From: Chiloscyllium plagiosum
Lineage: Eukaryota
Reading direction: 5' to 3'
DNA length: 64,000 bases
NCBI RefSeq assembly: GCF_004010195.1
Contig: NC_057719.1
Span: 19,539,562-19,603,561, forward strand
Below the pieces are notes generated by a model that made no database searches, was not told where the DNA came from, and worked only from the letters and a program-made list of their open reading frames with translations. A program made the translations under genes and the position numbers. The first letter of the stretch is position 1. Every line of letters begins with the position of its first letter. Below, in pieces: positions 5,394-63,590 of the stretch.

Positions 5394-5797
5394 TATTGGG
5401 GAGACTGGGCGCCTCCTAGCAGAGCGCTTTAGGGAACATCTCCGGGACACCCGCACCAATCAACTACACCGCCCTGTGGCCCAACATTTCAACTCCCCCT
5501 CCCACTCTGCCAAGGACATGGAGATCCTGGGCCTCCTTCACCGCCGCTCCCTCAGCACCAGGCGCCTGGAGGAAGAACGCCTCATCTTCCGCCTCGGAAC
5601 ACTTCAACCCCAGGTCACCAATGTGGACTTCAACAGTTTCCTCATTTCCCCTTCCCCCACCTCACCCTAGTTCCAAAATTCCAGCTCAGCACTGTCCCNN
5701 NNNNNNNNNNNNNNNNNNNNNNNNNNNNNNNNNNNNNNNNNNNNNNNNNNNNNNNNNNNNNNNTGGTTTCCAGCATCTGCAGTCATTGTTTTTACCT
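5394..5797 (+). mobile_element. Penelope-like element 3' fragment (GIY-YIG plus pLTR tail) spanning a gap
   Basis: IGETGRLLAERFREHLRD..VAQHFNSPSHS..EERLIFRLGTLQP; ends ccagcatctgcagtcattgtttttacct. Confidence 0.9.
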
Positions 5798-17546: not shown

Positions 17547-18835
17547 ACCTAAATTGAGTAAGATAACTCATAGGCCAGTATTCAGGAAGACATCTGGAGG
17601 ATTTCATACCTTGGAAAGTCCACCTACATGTGATGTGGAACAATTAATTTGTTTAGCAACATCAAAATCAGAACCAATCAAGATAAACATCTGTTAAATG
17701 ACATCTCATTCTAATTGAGGTTGATACCAGCACAGCCATTACAGAATTCTCTCTGGACTCGAGTCCTTAACTTTGCACAAGATCTCAGCTTGACTGAAAA
17801 CCTATACTGGGGAATCGTTGCAGATTAAGGGTATAACTTTAGTTTCAGTCTCTTATGAGAAGCAGCTGGTTCAGTTACCAGTGATTTGAGTAAAAGGCTC
17901 AGGCCCAAGCTTGATGGGGCAAAATTGGCTGTGAGAGATTCACTTCGATTGGCTCAACATTTTTCAATTAGAAAATGGCCACCTGAGTGAAATACCTGGA
18001 AGTCTTTCAGGAAGGTCTACGGACTAACAGAGGAGCCAAGGTGCATGTTGACAAAGAAGCCATTCCACAATTTTGAAAGGTTTGCCCAGTTGCCTTAGGG
18101 ACAAAGGTAGATCAGGAACCCAAAGGCAGAAAGTGAAGAATCATCAGTCTGCTCCAGTTAGCAGCAAGGGTAGTGCCTGATATACCGAGTTTGAAGCCAA
18201 ATGGATGAGTTCACCTTTGTGGGATTTTAAACAAATAGTAAACCACTTTTTTGCCTCTGGATAAAAGCCAATCCCTTGTGAAGAGGATTTATACACAAAG
18301 CTGGCAAAGGGCCTATTCTTCATGAAGCTTGACATGTATGGACAGCTCCATACCACCCATCATCCAATGGCTTTGCAGAAAGAGTGGTGGAAACTTTGAA
18401 AGCTGGATTGAAGAAACAGCCTACATCCTTGGTAGGTATCCAACTGCCATTATTCTTGTTTGATTATGGGACCACCCAGCATGCAACTACAAAGATAGCT
18501 CCAGTAGAGTTACTCATGCATAGAAGACTTCACATCAGGTTAAGGCTGATCTTCCTCACCTGGGGAGGGATGAAATGGCATCAGAAATTCCAATGTCAGA
18601 CTCAAGTCTCTGCCAAGCCGCCCTTGTCAGATGCAAATGGGGGAATCTGGCACAGTGATAAAATACCCCACATGGCTCTTCAAGAAAAAGGACCGGACTA
18701 TGTCCTCAAACTCAGAGTAAGGGGGAGATGTAATGACTGTAATAAGGTAGCCAGCCGGACATCTTAGATGATGAGTTCCTTAATTGGGGCTGCTACTCTG
18801 GTCCAATCAGGGTAACCTGGCTGTCATACAAAAAA

Positions 18836-19560
18836 GGGAATGCGCTGTGATCCCCTGCAACCGCAGATTGCAGTGGTTCACGGACTCTCAGCCCAACTGC
18901 TTGTTCTGTGGTGCTGTGGAGTCCGTGGACCATGTATATATTGGGTGTGGGCATTTGCACTCCCTTTTTGATTTCCTCAAAAACCTCTTTCTCTGCTTTT
19001 GGTTGCACTTCAGTCCCACGCTCCTGATCTTCGGGCACCCGGTACGAAGAAAGGAGGGCAGGTCTGAAGACCTCCTCGTGGGTCTGCTCCAGGGCCTGGC
19101 CAAACTGGCCATAAATAGGTCCAGGCAGCGGGCTGTGGAAGGGGTCGTTAGGGCCGACTGCCTGCCCTCTTCCACGGTTACGTTAGAGCCCGGGTGTCTA
19201 TGGAAAAGGAGCACGTGGTGTCCACCAACACCCTGGAGTTGTTCAGGGAGAGGTGGGTGCCGCAGGGAGTGGAGTGCATTATTTCCCCCTCCAACTCCAT
19301 TTTGATTTGATCCCTGCCCTCCCCTTCACTGTTTGATCACACAGCATTGCTCTTTCATGTGAAGGGCACTGCTTGTCATTGGCCACTTGGGTGTTTCTTT
19401 TCTTCCTGGTGGTGGAAATTTGAATAAAGATTCGTGCACCTTGTGTCTCTCACTGTGTCTCACACCTACACACACACAACATGGGTGCTGGGGAAAAAAT
19501 AATCACTACCGCAGTTAGGCGTAGTGTGGGGGAAGAAAAAAGAGAAATGCAAAAAAAAAA
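18836..19560 (+). mobile_element. Tx1/L1-clade LINE 3' fragment, copy 1
   Basis: C-terminal zinc-binding motif CLFCGAVESVDHVYIGC, LAKLAINRSRQR, a 3' UTR with AATAAA, a terminal stem-loop and an A-rich tail. Confidence 0.8.
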
Positions 19561-19802
19561 CAAATAAACAGGAGTGTCAGAGGTTCTGAGAGCTTCATTC
19601 TGAGAGCTGCCTCTGAGGGAGCTAGACCAGTATCAAGGACACTCCGTGTGTATGTAAAGGGTGACTTGGTGACAGGATATCAGCCTGTGTGGAGTTATTT
19701 CACTGTTGTCTGTCAGAACCTGTGCCATTGGACATCAGAGGAGGACATTATGTTGTGATAAAGACATTCAGATGAAATTTAAAAAAAGAAAAAGAAGAAG
19801 AA

Positions 19803-20533
19803 GGGAATGCGCTGTGATCCCCTGCAACCGCAGATTGTGGTGGTTCACGGACTCCAGCCCAACTGTTTGTTCTGTGGTGCTGTGGAGTCCGTGAACCATG
19901 TATATATCGGGTTTGGGCATTTGCACTCCCTTTTTGATTTTCTCAAAAACCTCCTTCTCTGCTTTTGGTTGCACTTCAGTCCCAAGCTCCTGATCTTCAG
20001 GCACCCGGTACGGAGGAGGGAGGGCAGGTCTGAAGACCTCCTCGTGGGTCTGCTCCTGGGCCTGGCCAAACTGGCCATAAACAGGTCCAGGCAGCGGGCC
20101 ATGGAGAGGGTCGTTAGAGCCGACTGCCTGCCCCTCTTCCGTGGTTATGTTAGAGCCCTTTGGTGTCTCTGGAAAAGGAGCACGCGGTGTCCACCAACAC
20201 CCTGGAGTTGTTCAGGGAGAGGTGGGTGCTGCAAGGAGTGGAGTGCATTATTTCCCCGTCCAACTCTATTTTGATTTGATCCCTTCCCTCCCTCTCACTG
20301 TTTGATTGCAGAGCATTGCCCTTTGATGTGAAGGGCACTGCTTGTCACTGGCCACTCGGGTGTTTCCTTTCTTCCTGGTGGTGGGAATTTGAATAAAGAT
20401 TTGTGCACCTTGTGTCTTTCACTGTGTCTCACACCTGCACACACACAACATGGGTGCTGGGGAAAAAATAAGCACTACCGCAGTTAGGCGGTAGTGTGGG
20501 GGTAAAAAGAGAAATAAACAAAAAAAAGGAAAA
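19803..20533 (+). mobile_element. Tx1/L1-clade LINE 3' fragment, copy 2
   Basis: Colinear with copy 1 and has the same 5' junction. Perfect hairpin cactaccgc-agttag-gcggtagtg at ~20473-20496; followed by the right half of an LTR (20534-20600). Confidence 0.8.
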
Positions 20534-21039
20534 ATAAACAGGCGTGTCAGGAGGTTCTGTTCACTCAGAGCTGGTTCTGAGGGAGCTGGATCAGTATGGA
20601 GTGAAGGGAAGGACTCTGCTCTCTCAAGGGAAGAGGAGACTGATTTCTTTTTTGTCATTGGTTTCTTTGCAGTAAGGAGGAGTTTTATTCTGAAGTTCTT
20701 TTGATTCTTTATATTGTTTACTGAGATTGTTTGCTTGTTTTCTGGCTTTTTCTTTTTGGCTTATTAAAAAAAAGGGAATGCGCTGATACTCAGGTGTGAT
20801 TTACCCTCTTACCTGCTGTTGTAGCCAACATAATTGCATGGCTTGTCCACTTCAGTTTCTGGTCAATGGTATATCCCGGGATGTTTGTTGTGGGAGGGTG
20901 GGGGGGGGAGGAGTTCATCAATGGAAGTCTCAATGAATGCCAAGGAGTGATTGTTAAATTCTCTCTTGTTGAAGACAGTCAATGTCTAGCATTTGTGTAG
21001 CATGGTGATGCAATATCCGAGTGATATTATTAATCCAGG

Positions 21040-25662: not shown

Positions 25663-26695
25663 TACATTTTCAAATTGACACAAACAGAAATAACGAATGT
25701 GACAATAGATATCGCTGGAGTTTGATATTAAAGGGTTACTTTTGTAAAGAACACGCTTTTGTTTTCTTTCATTGTTTTCTAAGTAAGTTCTTTATTAATA
25801 CGACCCAGAAGCATTACCCAAGAACTTAACTGCTCTCTGACAGAGAGCGTACATAAGAATCACTGCTGTTTAAACCTATCTTATACAACTTTGGAAAATG
25901 ATCAATCCATTACCAATCATAAAATTCACAACTTTCACTGGCCACAAAAAAAGATTTTTAAGATTTTAACTATATTACGCTTCAATTGAAAAATGTAGCT
26001 CATTAATTCAAAATTTAAAAAACCAATTACAAAGATTTCTGGAGTGAAAGAAAGGGAAATGATAATGCTTACTATACTCAAGAAAAATAATCAAATATAA
26101 TATCAAACAGGTACACACAAACATTTTAAAAAGAATCTAGGGCTAAAAGGAGGTCACAGAATATATAGTTTAAAAAGTCCTGAAAGTCTTTGAGATGCTT
26201 GAATTAAATTAAGTTATTTCATTAACGATTTGCAACCTCATCAGTGGCAACAATAGTAGATACATTTGAGTTATTTGTGAATGGGTGTTACTCCAATTTA
26301 CTCTGTCACTGGATACGATCATTCAAGAGGCCGAGAGAAGGAGAGAGTAAGTGTCTTCCAGTTCTCCTGTTATAAATTCATTCTTTTCCTCCATCTACAC
26401 TGCGCAGAAACAGTTGCCTAAAGTACAGTTAAGTTACTCATTGTTTTTTGTAAACTAGGTAATCTGTAGGTGCGTCTTTCATCCCAGTGTGTGAAACTTT
26501 CAGAAAGGTGGAAGTCAAGCAAGTGATACAAATTTAATTAACTGGTTTTGGTCATTGTGATGACAAGATCATTTTAGTGCAAACTGGAAACCTATTTGTT
26601 GATTGTTTAATGAGCATGGCTCAACCTTAGCAGGTGATCATTGTGGCAACGATACGTTAGAGTTTATTCTTTTTAAACCATTTCAATTCATGAAA

Positions 26696-28494: not shown

Positions 28495-31400
28495 AGAACC
28501 ATAGGGTAATAGTGTCACAGAGTTGTACAAAATGGAAACAGACCTTTCAGTCCAACTTGTCCGATCACTTATCTTCGATTAATCTCGTCCCATTGCCAGC
28601 ATTTGGCACATATCCCTCTAAACCCTTCCTATTCATGTGTCCAACTAGATGCCTTTTAAATATTGTAATTGCACCATCTACTACCACTTGCTCTGCCTGT
28701 TCATTCCATACACACACCACACTCTATATGAATAGTTAGCCCTTAGATTCCTTTTATACATTTTCTCTCTAACCTTAAACCTATGCCCTTTAGTTTTGGA
28801 TTCTCCTATGGTACAAAAAAGACCTTAACTATTCACCCTATGCCACTCATGACTTTATAAATCTCTATAAGATTACCCTCAGCCTCCAATTCTCCAAGGA
28901 AAATAGCCCCAGACTATTCAGCCTCTTCCTATAGCTCAAACCCTCCAACCCTGACAACATCCTTGGAAATTCTTTTTGAACCCTTTCAAATTTAACAACA
29001 TCATTCCTGTATCAAAGAGACCAGAATTAAATGCAGTATTCCAAAAGTGGCCTATACAATGTCCTGTACAGATGCAACATGACATTCCAACTCCTATACT
29101 CAGTGCATGGGCCAGTAAGTGTACCAAATGCCTTTTTCATTATCCTGTCTACCTGTGACTCTACCTACAAGGAGCTATGAATCTGTACTCTTTGTTCAAC
29201 AACACTCCCCAGTGTTAAATATATAAGTCCTGCCATGATTGCCGTACCAAATGCAATACCTCACACTTATCTAAATTAAACTCCATCTGCCACACAACAG
29301 CCAATCGGCCCGTCTGATCCAGGTCCCTTTGTACTCTGAGATAACCTTCTTCACTGTCCACTACACCATCAATTTTGCTGGTATCTGCAAACCTACTAAC
29401 CATTCCTCCTAGATTCACATCCAAATTGTTTATATAAATGACAAAAAAGCAGTGGACCCAGCACCAATCCTTGCAGCACACCACTTGTCACAGGTCCACA
29501 GTCTGAAAAACAACCCTCCACCATCACCTTCTGTTTCTTACCTAAGCCAACTTTGTATCCAAAAGGCTAGCTCTCCCTGGATTCCATGTGATCTAATCTT
29601 ACTAAGCAGCCTATCATGCAGAACCTTTGTTGACCACCTTACTGAAGTCCATATACACAATGTCCACTGCTCTGCTTTCATCAATCCACCTTGCTAATTT
29701 TTTAACAAACTCAGTCAAGTTAGCAAGACATGAGTTCTCATGTTGACTATCCCATTCAGTCCTTGCCTTTCCAAATACATGTAGATGTCAAATAATGACA
29801 CTACAGTAACCACCCTCCAGTCTCCCAGCACCTCACCCATGGCTATTGATGATACATATAGCTTAGCAAGGGGCCTAGCAATCACTTCCTTAGCTTCCTA
29901 CAAATGTATGGGATACACCTGATCAGATCCTTGGGATTAATCCACCCTTATGCATTTTAAGATGTCCAGCATCTCCTCCTGTAAAATATGGACATTTTTC
30001 AAGATATCACTATTTATTTCTCCAAGATCTCTAGCCTCCATATCCTTCTCCATAGTAATTACTCATTTACGATCATACCCATCTCCTATGAATCCACACA
30101 TAGACAGCCTTGTTGGTCTTTAAGAGACCCTATTTTTTCCCAAGTTACTCTTTTGCCCTTGGTGTATTTGTAGAATCTCTTTGCATTCTCCTTAACCCTA
30201 TTTGCCAAAGCTATTTTATGTTACCTTTTTGCTCTTCTAATTTCTCTCTTGCATATACTCCTACTGCCTTTATACTCCCTGAGCGATTCACTTGATCCCA
30301 GTTGTCTATACCTGCCATATAGCATTGACCAGAGCCTCAATTTCTCTAATCCAGCATTCCCTACACCTACTAGCTTTGCCCTTCATACAAGCAGGAACAT
30401 ACTGCCTCTGGACTCTTGTTATCTCATTTTTGAAGACCTCCCACTTTCCATCCATCTCATTATCTGTGAATAGTCTCTACCAATCAACTTTTGAAAGTTC
30501 TTGCCTAAAGCTGTCAAAATTGGCCTGACTTCAATATAAAACTTTAATTTTTAGATCACACCTATTATTTTGCATAACTATTTTAAAACAAATAGATCAC
30601 TGATCCCAATGTGCTTCCCCACTGACACCTCAGTCAATTGCCCTGCCTAATTTCCCAATAGAATGTCAAGTTTTGCTACTTTTCTAGCAGGTTTATCCAC
30701 ATACTGAATAAGAAAATTTTCTTGTAATGCACTTAACAAATTCCTCTCCATCTAAGCCCTTAACACTAAGCCATTCCCAGTCCATGTTTGGCAAATTAGA
30801 ATCCTCTACCATTACACCTCTATTATTCTAACAGATATCGGAGATCTCCTTACAAATTTGCTTCTCAATTTCCCACTGACTATTGAGGGGCCTATAATAC
30901 AATCTCAATAAAGTGATCATCCCTCTCATATTTCCCAGTTCCACCCAAATAACTTCACTGAATGTACTCCCAGGAACATTCTCTCTAAGTATAGCTGTCA
31001 TGTCATTCCTAACCAGAAACACCACTCTGTCTCCTCTCTTGCCCTACCTTCGATCCTTCCTGTAGCATCTACACCCTGGAAATTTATGCTGCCAGTCCCG
31101 CCCTTCCCTGAACCACATTTCTGTAATAGCTATGGTATCCCAGTCCCATGTTCCCAACCATGCCCTGAGTTCATCTCCCTTACCTGCATTGAAATAAAGC
31201 CAGTTTAATTTCTTGGTCTTACCTTGTTCTCTGCCTTGCTCTTGCCTGCCTTGACTTTTGACTTACTCCTCTTCTTAACTGTACCAGCTTCAGACTTATC
31301 TCTTTTCTCAAAATCTCTTTGGGTCCCATCCACTCAACTCCCGACCACCCCCATCTCTTTTTACTAGTTTAAAGCCTCCTGAGTAACACTAGCACATCTC

Positions 31401-33000: not shown

Positions 33001-33086
33001 AGAGACAGATCTCAGCAAAACCTTGACCTATGCAAAATTAAATATCACACAACACCAGGTTATAGTCCAAAAGGTTTAATTGGAAG

Positions 33087-33121
33087 CACTAGCTTTCGGA
33101 GCGACGCTCCTTCATCAGGTG
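33087..33121 (-). ncRNA. Minimal type I hammerhead ribozyme (type C)
   Basis: CAC-CUGAUGA-A-GGAGC-GUC-GCUCC-GAAA-GC-UA^GUG: 3-bp stem I, 5-bp stem II, palindromic AGCU in place of stem III. Confidence 0.8.
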
Positions 33122-34413
33122 GTAGTGGAGGGCTCAATCATAACACAGAATTTATAGCAAAACTTTACAGTGTGATGTAACTGAAATTATACATTGAAAA
33201 ATTGATTGTCTGTTAAGCCTTTCATCTGTTAGAATACCATGATAGCTTCACTTCTTTCATGTGTAAATCACAAAACCTTTTTTTAAAAAGTTGCATTCTC
33301 AGGTTAGCTGGTAACAATGGTGATAGCTAGACAATATGTTGAAGGTGTTAGCCCCCTGTGTTCTCTGTCTATGCCATGATGTTTNNNNNNNNNNNNNNNN
33401 NNNNNNNNNNNNNNNNNNNNNNNNNNNNNNNNNNNNNNNNNNNNNNNNNNNNNNNNNNNNNNNNNNNNNNNNNNNNNNNNNNNNNNNNNNNNNNNNNNNN
33501 NNNNNNNNNNNNNNNNNNNNNNNNNNNNNNNNNNNNNNNNNNNNNNNNNNNNNNNNNNNNNNNNNNNNNNNNNNNNNNNNNNNNNNNNNNNNNNNNNNNN
33601 NNNNNNNNNNNNNNNNNNNNNNNNNNNNNNNNNNNNNNNNNNNNNNNNNNNNNNNNNNNNNNNNNNNNNNNNNNNNNNNNNNNNNNNNNNNNNNNNNNNN
33701 NNNNNNNNNNNNNNNNNNNNNNNNNNNNNNNNNNNNNNNNNNNNNNNNNNNNNNNNNNNNNNNNNNNNNNNNNNNNNNNNNNNNNNNNNNNNNNNNNNNN
33801 NNNNNNNNNNNNNNNNNNNNNNNNNNNNNNNNNNNNNNNNNNNNNNNNNNNNNNNNNNNNNNNNNNNNNNNNNNNNNNNNNNNNNNNNNNNNNNNNNNNN
33901 NNNNNNNNNNNNACACACACACACATGCACTGTCTCACACTCACAACCCCCAATCCAGACAGACACACATACACAGATAGACAAAGGCCCACAAGCACAC
34001 ATATATTTTGTGGGGTGAATTTGTACTTTCAGGGTTACATTGTACTTTTCTCAAAAACTGCATGCATTCATGTAGAACTTTGAACTCAAAAACTGCATGA
34101 AATCATGTAAAACGCCATTATCTCACTTTTTAGATTACAATCAATCTAAACATCATGGCATAGACAGAGAACACAGGGGGCTAACACCTTCAACATATTG
34201 TCTAGCTATCACCATTGTTACCAGCTAACCTGAGAATGCAACGTTTTAAAAAAAAGTTTTTGTGATTTACACATGAAAGAAGTGAAACTGTCATGGTATT
34301 CTAACAGATGAAAGGCTTAACAGACAATCAATTTTTCAATGTATAATTTCAGTTACATCACACTGTAAATTTTTGCTATAAATTCTGTGTGTTAGGATTG
34401 AGCCCTCCACTAC

Positions 34414-34448
34414 GACCTGATGAAGGAGCAACGCTCTGAAAGCTAGTG
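34414..34448 (+). ncRNA. Minimal type I hammerhead ribozyme (type C, second arm)
   Basis: GAC-CUGAUGA-A-GGAGC-AAC-GCUCU-GAAA-GC-UA^GUG; core intact, one G-U pair in stem II and one stem I mismatch. Confidence 0.72.
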
Positions 34449-34699
34449 TGCTTCCAATTAAACCTGTTGGACTATAACCTGGTTTTGTGTGATTTTTAAC
34501 TTTGTACACCCCAGTCCAATACCGGCATCTCCAAACTTGACCTATGCATTCTGTATTATTCAAACTTGTAATTTACTGCAGGAAAGTACATTGCAAACAG
34601 ATTCCCAAGTAGTTGTATTATTCCTTATTGTCAATTCTTTTAATTTACTTCTTGAATCAGGTTCTGTTTTTGAGTGTTGTAGAGTTTCTTTTTGGTTTT

Positions 34700-34870
34700 C
34701 TTGAGGCTGGCATTAGATAGATTTTTGAACAGTAAAGGAATTAAGGGTTCCAGTGCGCAGGTGGGTAAGTGGATCTGAGTCCGTGAAAAGATCAGCCATG
34801 ATCTTATTGAATGGCGGTGCAGGCTCGAAGGGCCAGATGGCCTACTCCTGCTCCTAGTTCTTATGTTCTT
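34700..34870 (+). mobile_element. CR1 LINE 3' tail
   Basis: tcagccatgatcttattgaatggcggtgcaggctcgaagggccagatggcctactcctgctcctagttcttatgttctt. Confidence 0.8.
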
Positions 34871-35139
34871 AAAATTCTTCATTATTGTCATTGTCCTGGA
34901 GTTTAAAAAGTCTATTTGATGCCGTTACTTTCTTGACTTTTCAGTTATCTCCCAACATTGATCCTATACTTGGATTTCTGCTTTTCTTACTCTATTTTCT
35001 GGTATTTAACAGAGGTTAAATAAAATTTCAGTTAACAGTTAGGGAGACTATCATTGTGTTTTTCTTGCATCCCTGGTGAAGAGCAAACAAAATCTGATTA
35101 AGCAACCCTTATACTTTCACCTCCCCCATCTCACATGAG

Positions 35140-35550
35140 ATCATAAGATGCAGGAGTAGGCCATTCAGCCCATCAATAGGATCCTGGTTGATTTGATCTT
35201 GGCCTCATCACCACTTCCTGCCTTGTTCTCCATGCTGCTTTACTCACTTGTCAATCAGCGTTGAATATGTTCAATGACCAACTTCTATTGCTCTCATGTA
35301 AAGAATTCCAGAGATTGACAACCCTTTGAGTGAGGAAATTCCTCGCCATATCCATCTTAAATGAAAGCTGCTTAACATTAAATAGTGTCCTCTGCTTCTA
35401 GATTCCCCAGTTAGAGGAAGCATCTTCTCAGAATCCACTCTGTCAAGTCTTTTAGGATCTTACATGTTCCAATAAGGTCATCTGTCAATATTCTAAATGC
35501 CATTGAATCTGCTCAACCTTTACTCAGAAGACAACACCTTCATCCCAGAA
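35140..35550 (-). mobile_element. CR1 LINE 3' fragment
   Basis: Reverse complement of the same tail family as 34700-34870, plus RT C-terminus. Confidence 0.7.
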
Positions 35551-37362
35551 ATCATTACAATTTACTTTTCTTTGCTGTCAATACTTTCATTGTCCTCTCA
35601 AATCCTATGATACTTTCAACCAGTGAGATGTGTTGAATTTTCTTTTCAATTTTCTCAATTCATCACAAAAAAAAGGACTGAATTCTTTTTTTACAAAGCT
35701 ATGCCTTTCTCCATTTAAAATTAAGTTACTTATTTTTACTGTAAGGAATAAGGAGCCAATCACAAGTTTCCTTGAGTTATGGAAAGAGCAATTTTACTAT
35801 CTGCTAAACCTGAGAAAACTAACAGAGATGGGATATCAAGTGTACAGCTTCCATGTAATCCCACACTGCCATGATCCCAGCTGAAGGTAATACTGGGCAC
35901 GTCAGCTCCAGAGTGAAACTTGGCTTCGTAACTTTTATTTTGGTTACAATGGTGGACTGTCATGGAACTTATTCACAGAAGACTGCCAATATACTTTTGA
36001 CAAATGAATATCAGTTTACTACATGCAAAAGAGGCAAAAATACAAACTACATTACATCATAGAAGAACTGTTTGAAACTCTTTTTATATCTGCTAGTGGC
36101 TTGTAAGTGGCCCTAGTTAGCCTTGAGAAGGTAGTGGTGAGCTGCCTTCTTGAGCCACTGCAGTCCACATGCTGTATGTTGAATCACAATGCCATTAGGG
36201 AGGGAATTCCAGGATTTTGATCTAGCAACAGTATGATATATTTTCAAATGAGGATGGTAAATGGCTACAGGGGAATATGCAGATGCTGGTATTCCCATGT
36301 ATCTGTATGTGCTGCCCTTGTTTCTTTAGATTGGAAGGTGCTGTCTAAGAATCTTTGGTGAATTTCTGCAGTTAATCTTGTAGACATTACATACAGCTGC
36401 TACTGAGTTAATGGTAGAGGGAATGGGTTGCTTTGTCTTGTATGGTGTCAAGCTTCTTGAGTGTTGTTGGAGCAGCATTCAACCAGGCAAGTGGGGAGTA
36501 TTACCTCACACTCCAGACATGTGCCTTGTATATGGTGGACAAGTGGGTTCAGGAGGTGGGTTGACCATCTCTTATAGCCAATCTGTTGCTAATGGTGAGT
36601 CCATTTTAGTTTCTGGCCAAAGGTAAGACCCAGAATGTTGATAGTGAGGGAATCAGTGGTGGCAACACCATTGAATGTCAAAGCAGTAGTAATATCGCCT
36701 CTTATTAGGGATGGTCATTGCCTGGCAATTGTGTAGCATTCATGTTATTTTTCACTTGTCAGCCCTAGCCTGGATATTGTTCAGATCTTGTTGCATTTAA
36801 ACATGGACTGCTTCAGTATCTGAGGAATTGTGAATGGCGCTGGACATTGTACAATCGTCAGTGAACATCCTCACTTCTGACCTTATGATGAGGGAGAATC
36901 ATTGATGAAGCAGTTGAAGATGATTGGGCCTAGGACAGCATCCTGAGGAACTCCTGCAGGGATGTCCTGGGGTTGAGATGACTGATCTTCTGATGTGCGA
37001 GGCATGAGTCCAACGTGATACCCATTGGTTTCAGTATTTCTCGGGCTCCTTGATGCCACACTTGATTGAATGCAGCCTTGATGTCAAGGGCTATCACTCT
37101 GACCTCACCTCTGGAATTCAGCTCTTTTGTCCATGTTTGAACCAAGGCTATACTGAGGTCAGGAGCTGAGTGTCCATGGTGGAAGCCAAACTGGGTGTCA
37201 CTGAGCAGGTTATTGCTGAGCAGGTTCTGCTTGATAGCACTGTTGCTGACACCTTCCATCACATTACTGATGATTGAGAGTAGACAAATAGGGCAGTAAC
37301 TGGCCAGGTTGGATTTGTCCAGCTTTTTGTGTACAGGACATATCTAGGAAATTTTCCACATT

Positions 37363-38509: not shown

Positions 38510-39265
38510 GAATCATAGAGTCATAGAGATGTACAGCACAGAAACAGACCCTTCGGTCCAACCCGTCCATGCCAACAAGATATCCCAACCCAATCTAGTC
38601 CCACCTACTAGCACCCGGCCCATTCATATACTCATCCAGATGCCTTTTAAATGCTATACTTGTACCAGCCTCCACCACTTCCTCTGGCAGCCCATTCCAC
38701 ACACACCACCGTCTGCGTGAAAAGGTTGCCCCTTAGGTCTCTTCCCCCTCTCACCCTAAAACTATGCCCTCTCGTTCTGGTCTCCCCCACCCCATGCCCC
38801 TCATGATTTTATAAACCTCTATAAGGTCACCCCTCAGCCTCCGACGCTCCAAAGAAAACAGCCCTAGCTTATTCAGCCTTTCCCTATAGCTCAATTCCTC
38901 CAACCCTGACAACATCCTTGTAAATCTTTTCTGAACCCTTTCAAGTTTCACAACATCCTTCTGATAGGAAGGAGACCAGAATTGCACACAATATTCCAAA
39001 AGTGGCCTGTAGAGCCGCAACATGACCTTTCAACTCCTATACTCAATACTGTGACCAATGAAGGAAAGCATACCAAATGCCTTCTTTGCTACCCTGTCTA
39101 ACTGCAACTCTGCTTCCAAGGAGCTATGAACAGCACTCCAAGGTCTCTTTGTTCAGCAACACTCCCTAGGACCTTACCTTTAAGTGTATAAGTCCTGCTA
39201 AAATTTGCTTTCCCAAAATGCAGCACCTCGCATTTATTTATATTAAACTCCATCTGCCCATTGGC
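38510..39265 (-). mobile_element. CR1 LINE 3' fragment
   Basis: LLEYCVQFWSP..LERVQKRFTRM and a (tcatagag)n tail. Confidence 0.9.
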
Positions 39266-40296
39266 CCTTCTCTTGAATGAAATCTAAATTCTCATTCCCT
39301 TTTGCATGTATCTCTTTTTTTCTAAAAGAACTGATTTTCAGTCTCCCATTTTCTTTTCATCTCTTGTTTCTGAATCACTGAACTACTCACCTCAATGATT
39401 TTTCAAAACCTCAGTTAAGTGCATTTAAACAAATTTTCTAGAAACCCGGTATTGCACAGAACTCAAAGATGAAACTGAATCTATATACTTCTTAACATGC
39501 ATAATATCGAATACAAATAAAAAAAATACATGGTTCTGTCCACAGTAGAGTTTAAGTTTCTAAATAATAATATTTATAATAATAGTAAAAGTATACTTTT
39601 CCTAAAAGTTCATCACAAATCTACAAAGTTAAAAAGGGATTGTGCTTAAAACAAAGGTAGATAAAAGAATAAATAGGTTAGAGTCTTTTGGTGTTCTCAG
39701 ATGTAAGGTTTTATCTGAGACTACAGTTGGTTAGTTAGTTTCTTGGAGTTTACCAGCATAATATAGTTATCTTTTATGTTCAGTTCTCAGTAGTTTCTAT
39801 CCAGCTAATGTTAGATATTTTGTTTCCTGAGGGAAAGAGAGCCTTCCCTGCTTGGGTTCAGTACTGCATTCTTACCTTCCCGGTCTGCCAAAACAGCCCC
39901 TTGAAATAGCAATTTGTTTACAGGGGACTGGGCCATATAATGCACGCGGCATGGACTGCTCACAATTGTGCACTTTGTCACTTTTCGACCGGACTGTAAA
40001 TATCCAACAGTGCAAGCTTCCATTCTTTACTGATTCAACTCAGAGCAATGAAGTGGTGAAGGGAAGCAATGGACATTGAAAAGGGGGCAAGAAGACTGTT
40101 GGATCCATGTGCACCATGGGGCAAGAGTAGGTTTATTCAAGGTTGCATTTTCAGTGGAAGTGTTCCCACAAGCATCTCACAGTAATTTCTAGAGCTCACA
40201 GTCTCGATTAGATTACTCAGGTGAAATGTGCCAGAATCAGGTGTTCCCTGGCTTTGACTGTATTCTTGTGAGTTCCCTGTATACCGTCCAGCCTAG

Positions 40297-40752
40297 ATTA
40301 GAGTGGTGCTGGAAAAGCACAGCAGGTCAGGCAGCATCCGAGGAGCAGGAAAATCGATGCTTCGGGCAAAAGCCCTTCATCAGGAAGGGGCAGAGGAGAT
40401 GTCCTGGGGGTTCCAGTGAGAGATAGATTCACTGAGATTCTTGTAGGGAAAGGAGGATAACTTCTTCAAGGTAGGCATCCTTGCAAGACGATTCGCAATA
40501 AGGTTAAAATCAACTAGGCAAACGTGAGGACTGCAGATGCTGGAAATCAGAGTCTAGATTAGAGTGGTGCTGGAAAAGCACAGCAGGTCAGGCAGCATCC
40601 GAGAAGCAGGAAAATTGACATTCTGAGCAAAAGCCCTTCATCAGAAACGTCGATTTTCCTGCTCCTCGAATGCTGCCTGACCTGCTGTGCTTTTCCAGCA
40701 CCACTCTAATCTAGACTCTGATCTCCAGCATCTGCAGTCCTCACTTTTACCA
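40297..40752. mobile_element. Compact PLE-derived element: pLTR, short ORF-start relic, pLTR, inverted pLTR
   Basis: 10-bp TSD tccagcctag (40287-40296, 40753-40762). Two direct pLTR copies (40297-40385, 40525-40644) and one inverted copy (40644-40752). Confidence 0.85.
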
Positions 40753-62600: not shown

Positions 62601-63590
62601 AGGTAAAAACAATATATCCCTGGTGGTGGGGTCTTTTTGGAGGTTGCGGAATCTGAGGGCGGAGGTGCGGGATGTGGACAAGATGCGTTGGAGGGCATCT
62701 TTAATCACTTCCTCTTTAACCAATTCCTCCGCCTCTGCCGTATCTGCTCCCAGGAGGACCGGTTCCACCACAGAACACACCAGATGGCCTCCTTCTTTAG
62801 AGACCACAATTTCCCTTCCCAGGTTAAAGATGCCCTCCAATGCATCTCGTCCACATCCCGCACCTCCGCCCTCAGACCCCACCCCTCCAACCGTAACAAA
62901 GACAGAANNNNNNNNNNNNNNNNNNNNNNNNNNNNNNNNNNNNNNNNNNNNNNNNNNNNNNNNNNNNNNNNNNNNNNNNNNNNNNNNNNNNNNNNNNNNN
63001 NNNNNNNNNNNNNNNNNNNNNNNNNNNNNNNNNNNNNNNNNNNNNNNNNNNNNNNNNNNNNNNNNNNNNNNNNNNNNNNNNNNNNNNNNNNNNNNNNNNN
63101 NNNNNNNNNNNNNNNNNNNNNNNNNNNNNNNNNNNNNNNNNNNNNNNNNNNNNNNNNNNNNNNNNNNNNNNNNNNNNNNNNNNNNNNNNNNNNNNNNNNN
63201 NNNNNNNNNNNNNNNNNNNNNNNNNNNNNNNNNNNNNNNNNNNNNNNNNNNNNNNNNNNNNNNNNNNNNNNNNNNNNNNNNNNNNNNNNNNNNNNNNNNN
63301 NNNNNNNNNNNNNNNNNNNNNNNNNNNNNNNNNNNNNNNNNNNNNNNNNNNNNNNNNNNNNNNNNNNNNNNNNNNNNNNNNNNNNNNNNNNNNNNNNNNN
63401 NNNNNNNNNNNNTCACCCATTGTACTCTATGCTACTTTCTCCCCACCCCCCCCCTCCTCTAGCTTATCTCTCCACGCTTCAGGCTCACTGCCTTTATTCC
63501 TGATGAAGGGCTTTTGCCCGAAACATCGATTTCGCTGCTCCTTGGATGCTGCCTGAACTGCTGTGCTCTTCCAGCACCACCAATCCAGAA
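62601..63590 (+). mobile_element. Penelope-like element with inverted 5' segment, spanning a gap
   Basis: 62612-62703 is PLE ORF sequence on -, and 62705-62907 is on + (QFLRLCRICSQEDRFH); pLTR at 63413-63590. 16-bp TSD ttttatacaa(t/a)caatg at 62585-62600 and 63591-63606. Confidence 0.88.
63500..63527 (+). ncRNA. Minimal hammerhead core (type A)
   Basis: CUGAUGA-A-GGGC-UUUU-GCCC-GAAA-CA-UC. Confidence 0.72.

Follow-up and report, generated by a model that had tools for sequence, protein, structure and literature searches.

The stretch of DNA analysed here, called the window throughout, is 64 kb long and carries at 33022..34548 an insertion built of two similar arms in inverted orientation. 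The left copy (33033..33384, minus strand) aligns with the reverse complement of the right arm (34148..34504, plus strand) with 94.7% identity over 357 columns (E 1e-158), so that the inverted similar arms announced by an earlier note on this DNA were borne out; the differences between them amount to 14 substitutions and 3 indels. In the 64-kb window, neither arm piece matches anything but itself and its partner. The right arm is the pLTR-bearing 3' end of the element, and the left copy is the inverted 3' end, which has no tail and runs on into an assembly gap. This gap of 528 N (33385..33912) separates the arms and is expected to contain the head-to-head junction of the two copies; a symmetric insert would have its computed midpoint at 33768.

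We observed that the whole unit is enclosed by a perfect 13-bp TSD, as had been claimed. The 13-mer CTTGACCTATGCA lies at 33022..33034 (left TSD) and at 34536..34548 (right TSD), both on the plus strand, and these two occurrences are the only ones in the 64-kb window. It is the longest word common to both ends of the insertion; for random pairs taken at the same spacing, the longest common word had at most 11 letters in 3000 of 3000 cases. Since the final 2 nt of the left TSD overlap the end of the left arm and fit it too, the effective length of the TSD is 11-13 bp. Between the right arm and the right TSD lies a one-sided tail of 31 nt (34505..34535, plus strand), or of 33 nt if the two shared nucleotides are assigned to the TSD; the extra tail described on the right side is present, with a length of 31-33 nt and not of about 40 nt.

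The CA-rich, non-coding stretch between the gap and the right arm (33913..34147, plus strand) had been named, beside the gap, as a segment enclosed by the arms. It contains no ORF, and its family-level depth of about 1e5 in three public DNA runs shows that it is the upstream part of the right copy and no spacer; it is probably the 3' UTR of the element. Two 29-nt direct repeats, 35 bases apart and 90% alike, are found in it at 34050-34113. The reported lack of visible coding sequence was confirmed as well: in all frames of the sequenced parts of the element, the longest stop-free stretch has only 65 codons, and Pfam gave no match for the 3 element frames among the 36 frames scanned.

Other repeats surround the insertion. 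An abundant SINE-like repeat occupies 34713-34872, with a summed depth of up to 6e5 and loose ends behind 34871, and the repeat at about 34750-34870 is probably a shark SINE; a short inverted fragment of it lies 300 bp away, at 35150-35174. On the minus strand, a reverse transcriptase fragment at 36933-37343 (Pfam RVT_1, E 4e-9) is probably a LINE remnant, and pieces near 38750-39030 and 29215-29490 resemble by eye the ends of CR1-type ORF2. Within 18333-20597, a weak integrase-core match (rve_3, E 2e-4, below the cut-off) adjoins a pair of 800-bp direct repeats (18831-19633 and 19798-20597, 90.6%), and this region is possibly the remnant of an LTR element.

Hammerhead motifs in the two arms

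We scanned both strands of the 64-kb window for the hammerhead core and obtained 8 sites, two of which lie in the arms, at 33118 (minus strand) and 34417 (plus strand). By core and pairing, a minimal type I hammerhead is present in the pLTR of both arms, in agreement with the earlier note, the right one being decayed. Both motifs face outward, indicating that the two copies stand head to head and that each has its 3' end at a TSD. The left motif (33087..33121, minus strand) is predicted to be intact: stem I has 3 bp, an extra A follows A9, stem II has 5 bp and is closed by G10.1-C11.1, and a palindromic AGCU replaces stem III; its cut is predicted between 33090 and 33089. In the motif predicted on the right (34414..34448, plus strand), G10.1-U11.1 stands at the base of stem II instead of G-C and the outer pair of stem I is lost; here the cut would fall between 34445 and 34446.

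Rfam gave no hit in the whole window at the gathering score and, around the element, four chance hits at E up to 10, with no hammerhead among them. In addition, the MFE of the arm motifs is no better than that of shuffled sequences (z -1.3 to +0.2). Both results count against the motifs, yet they would be expected of hammerheads without stem III. According to the accessible text of Cervera and De la Pena 2014 (PMC4209133), minimal PLE hammerheads have an extra base after position 9, G10.1-C11.1 and a palindromic 15.2-16.2, are found as opposite-strand pairs about 100-700 bp apart, and cleave little as dimers and not at all as monomers. The motifs described here share with these hammerheads the type I core, the extra base after position 9, the stem III palindrome and the opposite-strand pairing of sites, and G10.1-C11.1 is found in the left copy; they differ from those in that text by a stem I of only 3 bp and by the two pairs lost in the right copy.

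Further minimal hammerheads, which belong to other repeat families, lie at 2781 (minus), 37532 (plus), 45650 (minus), 51997 (plus) and 63500 (plus). Relatives of these repeats, about 90-150 bp long, recur often in the window and in places form close inverted pairs, for example 40290-40386 with 40551-40717. When the arm was compared with five of the six other motif hits (the sixth, at 26244, was omitted as a likely chance match), the scores of 22-30 were equalled by 27-152 of 300 shuffles; the arm thus has no significant similarity to the five repeats compared, in line with what the earlier note had stated for the pLTR families of the window. The two other assembly gaps of the window, at 5699-5763 and 62908-63412, adjoin copies of other hammerhead-bearing families, and gaps beside such repeats suggest that these elements often break the assembly.

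The repeat family and the age of the insertion

Four public runs were aligned to 33913-35400, which covers the right copy with its flank. Three of them are DNA runs, each from a different organism, in which 82,909, 63,241 and 72,384 contig records aligned; the fourth is the RNA run X21. Over 33913-34562 the summed family depth, which is no copy number, reaches 1e5-1e6, against about 10 in the unique flank. The family of the arms is plainly a very abundant repeat in the three organisms, so that its description as a distinct family applies to the window only. Its depth climbs about tenfold or more toward the 3' end, and loose ends are found before 34415 (293 records in DNA run X1 and 236 reads in X21), which suggests that many family copies start just upstream of the ribozyme; the 5' ends of the two copies at this locus fall within the gap.

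At the 3' side, two hot spots of loose ends were found in all three DNA runs. Among the 24 of 2975 loose-end entries listed, those behind 34501-34503 comprise 450, 388 and 509 records and those behind 34535 comprise 1498, 1430 and 1522; the continuations past both hot spots are unrelated and AT-rich (agreement 0.34-0.43). These two family-wide ends are the two ends of the insertion at 33022..34548. Indeed, the left copy terminates at the short family end (the equivalent of 34502-34504) and the tail of the right copy reaches the long one. Loose ends at 34448 were rejected as a real end, being due to a 2-nt length difference.

Joints to the opposite strand are present in other copies of the family, among the 15 of 664 joint entries listed. 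Joints from 34415 to 34447/34448 were seen in 18, 12 and 12 contigs of the three DNA runs and in 2 RNA reads; they correspond either to inversions pivoting at the ribozyme edges or to a local inversion of the ribozyme. In the family read-through sequence an ATG is present after the tail; it fits a pLTR that overlaps the start of the ORF, and is only a hint of such an arrangement. Four motif scans, of two metagenome collections, genome contigs and viral contigs, gave 0 loci for an RT/GIY-YIG partner, these collections being mostly microbial and the result uninformative for a vertebrate repeat.

The earlier note had called the insertion young, which the divergence of its copies does not support. 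The arms differ by substitution at 14 of 352 positions (4.0%), and no fewer than 21 places in about 605 nt, none of them at a CpG, set the right copy apart from the family majority (among the 40 of 144 places listed, leaving out one whose majority letter is that of the window). Of the 7 arm places with a listed majority, 5 show the majority letter, or a gap-shifted equivalent, in the left arm and not in the right; the left arm bears changes of its own too, so both copies have drifted. The insertion has aged, with about 2% per arm. If the host is a shark with a mutation rate near 7e-10 per generation, the value in the available portion of PMC10587355, 2% per arm would correspond to tens of millions of generations, a figure which fails if the arm templates already differed.

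Compared with the window, the orthologous flank of organisms B and C shows differences at 7/336, 8/251 and 14/~520 letters. When the divergence of the arms is set against that of the flank, the insertion may be older than the splits from these organisms. The orthologous right flank is present in both of them, and the stretch beside the TSD is barely covered. One X1 contig (34508-34813) crosses the right junction, as would suit a filled site, with 28 element-side letters for a threshold of 31 and with 18 unplaced differences; an empty site could likewise give differences of this kind (11-16 mismatches computed).

Origin of the insertion

We propose, with a probability of about 0.88, that one retrotransposition by an endonuclease-bearing Penelope-like element (PLE) gave rise to a head-to-head pair of 3' ends, both truncated on the 5' side. 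The two ends at family hot spots, the TSD, the orientation and the ribozyme motifs were observed directly. By analogy with the Poseidon protein of Anolis, a GIY-YIG endonuclease would have opened an AT-rich site by cuts in both strands, staggered by 11-13 nt, and each 3' end so freed would have served as primer for reverse transcription from an internal point of the RNA, namely one of two fixed starts 31-33 nt apart. Use of the short start on the left and of the long one on the right would yield the one-sided tail, the two cDNAs would be joined at their truncated 5' ends somewhere within the present gap, and fill-in would create the TSD. We infer the staggered cutting, priming, joining and fill-in from this analogy; the enzyme is presumed, no RT or GIY-YIG sequence being linked to the family, and the head-to-head junction would be located in the 528-N gap. 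The same product could also arise by self-priming on an antisense template, as proposed in the accessible part of PMC3846280.

This architecture has already been described for PLEs. In the available text of Craig et al. (PMC8557442), PLE insertions are truncated at the 5' end, where an inverted truncated copy often adjoins them, and have a tail of 30-40 bp at one end, the legend of Fig. 2 giving this as a general scheme. In that of Arkhipova et al. (PMC3846280), inverted pLTRs are mostly head to head and are accompanied by a 31-bp tail and TSDs of 8-10 bp, and in the accessible part of PMC2377424 inverted terminal repeats are the commonest Penelope form in D. virilis. At our locus we found an inverted copy at the 5' side with the 3' ends outward (the junction itself being within the gap), a one-sided tail of 31-33 nt delimited by two fixed 3' ends that are hot spots in 3/3 DNA runs, and a short TSD of 11-13 bp around the unit. 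As far as these sources describe them, EN+ PLE insertions with inverted pLTRs (Pen2a_Av of Adineta vaga, PMC3846280; D. virilis Penelope, PMC2377424) likewise have an inverted truncated copy head to head beside the direct copy, a tail of about 31 bp at one end only and a short TSD around the unit. The insertion differs from those of the Pen2a_Av type, as described there, by the lack of an ORF in the sequenced part and by its TSD, the 11-13 bp of which, against 8-10 bp in the rotifer examples, count against the PLE reading; its arms are at least 352 bp long and its junction falls within the gap. The published architecture and the two family-wide 3' ends uphold the assignment of the arms by the earlier note to PLE end pieces in the inverted-pLTR configuration.

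A second comparison is provided by Poseidon of Anolis carolinensis (PAc). The consulted portion of Frangieh et al. (PMC11167929) describes an Anolis protein that in vitro cuts AT-rich DNA on both strands, extends both, and starts reverse transcription at two sites which delimit the tail; insertion persists in ribozyme mutants, and RNA-seq reads starting or ending at the ribozyme site were not found. As in PAc according to that portion, two fixed 3' ends bound the tail here, with AT-rich sequence beyond, the hammerhead lies upstream of the tail and no pile-up of RNA ends at the ribozyme cut site is listed for X21. Unlike PAc, whose ORF is described as starting inside the ribozyme, the ATG in the core meets here a stop after 8 codons; the ORF of the arm family probably starts later than the ribozyme, judging from the ATG which follows the tail in read-through. 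The left flank slightly resembles the tail end, but its score is equalled by 9.0% of 6000 random sites, and that of the TSD against the family read-through by 6.5%; homology between target site and element was therefore rejected.

Could the inversion be a scaffolding or gap-filling artefact which joined two unrelated copies or duplicated a single one? A gap of 528 N lies at its centre, and such structures trouble short-read assemblies according to the accessible text of PMC8557442. Moreover, the 95 nt beside the gap (33290..33384, minus strand) are identical to 34148-34242 of the right arm, with which they share at 34221 an allele carried by less than 1% of the X1 family depth; all 17 arm differences lie in the other 262 columns, P being 0.004 for such a block at the gap end and 0.08 for one anywhere. 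This identity may result from gap-filling with right-arm reads, from gene conversion, or from a shared template and chance. The 17 differences in the outer 262 columns are spread over both arms, and private changes in both indicate two real copies. The identical 13-mer at both outer ends, a length which 0 of 3000 random pairs reach, and the position of each end on a different canonical family end also speak against an artefact, which we judge improbable. It is plausible that an artefact affects the inner 95 nt alone, which would leave the PLE reading intact; the outer arm and both junctions are unaffected by this caution. Among the pieces listed from the public runs, no contig spans the stretch 33913-35400.

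It is still less probable that the whole unit is a non-autonomous mobile element, either a fold-back mini-PLE or a retrozyme-like RNA processed by its two ribozymes. The sequenced parts carry no coding sequence, a clean TSD encloses the entire unit, and non-autonomous PLE derivatives exist in the part of the literature consulted. Like non-LTR retrozymes, as the available text of bioRxiv 10.64898/2026.07.22.740005 presents them, the insertion is non-coding, PLE-derived and equipped with a type I hammerhead. The same text, however, defines a retrozyme by the head-to-tail arrangement of its units and by at least two ribozymes of the same sense, whereas we found an inverted pair with one motif per strand, so that no RNA carries two. 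The sense ribozyme would in addition pair with the other arm (-128.8 kcal/mol, against -13.6 kcal/mol alone), and both ends of the unit are general family ends, as expected if the inversion arises at insertion. LTR retrozymes have a type III hammerhead, direct LTRs and a 4-bp TSD, in contrast with the type I motif, the inverted arms and the 11-13 bp TSD found here. The retrozyme-like derivative suggested by the earlier note is thus not supported; in the reading proposed here, the insertion is a non-coding relic and not an element mobile as a unit.

Least probable of all is a DNA transposon (Foldback or Mutator-like) with an incidental hammerhead and the arms as long terminal inverted repeats, a reading that would suit long inverted arms, a TSD of about 11-13 bp and the fact that an RT-bearing relative was not shown in this analysis, but terminal inverted repeats have symmetric ends flush with both TSDs, while those of this insertion are asymmetric by the 31-33 extra nt on the right, the 3'-rising depth and the starts before 34415 resemble 5'-truncated retrocopies, and the motif resembles the minimal hammerheads of PLEs in its features. 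The insertion left by a PLE is, in sum, an ordinary one of known pattern.

RNA of the family and a candidate polyadenylation site

The predicted pairing of the two arms amounts to -577.7 kcal/mol, and a read-through RNA could fold into a hairpin of 350 bp. In either direction, the sense ribozyme is transcribed after its complement, with which its predicted pairing (-128.8 kcal/mol) far exceeds its own fold (-13.6 kcal/mol). The minimal hammerhead motif would need a partner copy. With the ribozyme paired away and a single copy of the motif per strand, self-cleavage of read-through RNA is unlikely in this model. The expectation that transcription from either strand would meet one ribozyme and form long dsRNA thus holds for the geometry, but the sense ribozyme would be paired away and RNA reads were absent from the unique flank.

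The latter result comes from X21, a single-cell poly(A) library from one sample, of which about 2% was read. It gave 4062 aligned reads, only 48 of them at 99% identity or more, so X21 reports on the family and not on the insertion at 33022..34548. In the unique flank bins 34563-34712 and 34913-35112 it gave 0 reads. At 34413-34462, first mates numbered 1418 on the minus and 197 on the plus strand, which by the usual convention corresponds to plus-strand, ribozyme-sense RNA. In this library, of a type poorly suited to the question, no pile-up of RNA ends was listed at the ribozyme cut site, and the depth continues across the predicted cut.

We observed in the family reads of X21 that poly(A) begins behind 34474 in 412 reads and behind 34477 in 534, a total of 946. 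These two points are part of a candidate polyadenylation site (34457..34497, plus strand) in which they lie 12-15 nt past an ATTAAA (34457-34462) and ahead of a GT-rich tract; family reads have AATAAA where the right arm of the window has ATTAAA. The left copy has a similar ATTAAA hexamer (33075..33080, minus strand) with the GT-rich tract downstream intact, a putative signal by comparison with the family reads. The DNA after the poly(A) points is not A-rich, the next 20 bases having 3 and 1 A, which makes internal priming on this sequence unlikely. Family RNAs thus appear to gain poly(A) just after the ribozyme, about 30 nt past its cut site, in reads which come from one sample, were not counted as independent molecules and possibly derive from few host mRNAs. 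A-tailed genomic copies are another possible source of these reads (the loose-end entries considered being 24 of 2975).

Both insertion ends lie downstream of these polyadenylation points; an RNA that serves as template for insertion must therefore run past the site, and would be a tandem or a read-through RNA. We therefore put forward, as a tentative and rather doubtful proposal, that a working poly(A) site in the pLTR, 27-61 nt upstream of the RT starts, gates transposition and that inverted pairs act as two-way terminators. That a 3' terminal repeat should contain a poly(A) site is in itself unsurprising. In the accessible portions of the literature considered, which includes PMC2377424, PMC8557442, PMC6765202 and PMC11167929 (subscription papers, Repbase and Dfam being outside its scope), no PLE poly(A) site at such a place is reported.

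The insertion itself matters little, being a clear case of a PLE structure already described, and the match of its ends to the family-wide ends fits the two-start model derived from the only in vitro PLE system. If the proposal on the poly(A) site is true, mature polyadenylated RNA ending at the pLTR site cannot template insertions and read-through would gate transposition. A transcript entering from either side would then pass the antisense arm and afterwards the sense poly(A) site, so that its product would be a hairpin RNA with a poly(A) tail; over many copies such pairs would be a possible source, across the genome, of long dsRNA and of premature 3' ends. If real, the site would also place the ends of PLE transcripts relative to the ribozyme and to the RT starts, and it would bear on which RNA PLEs use as their template.
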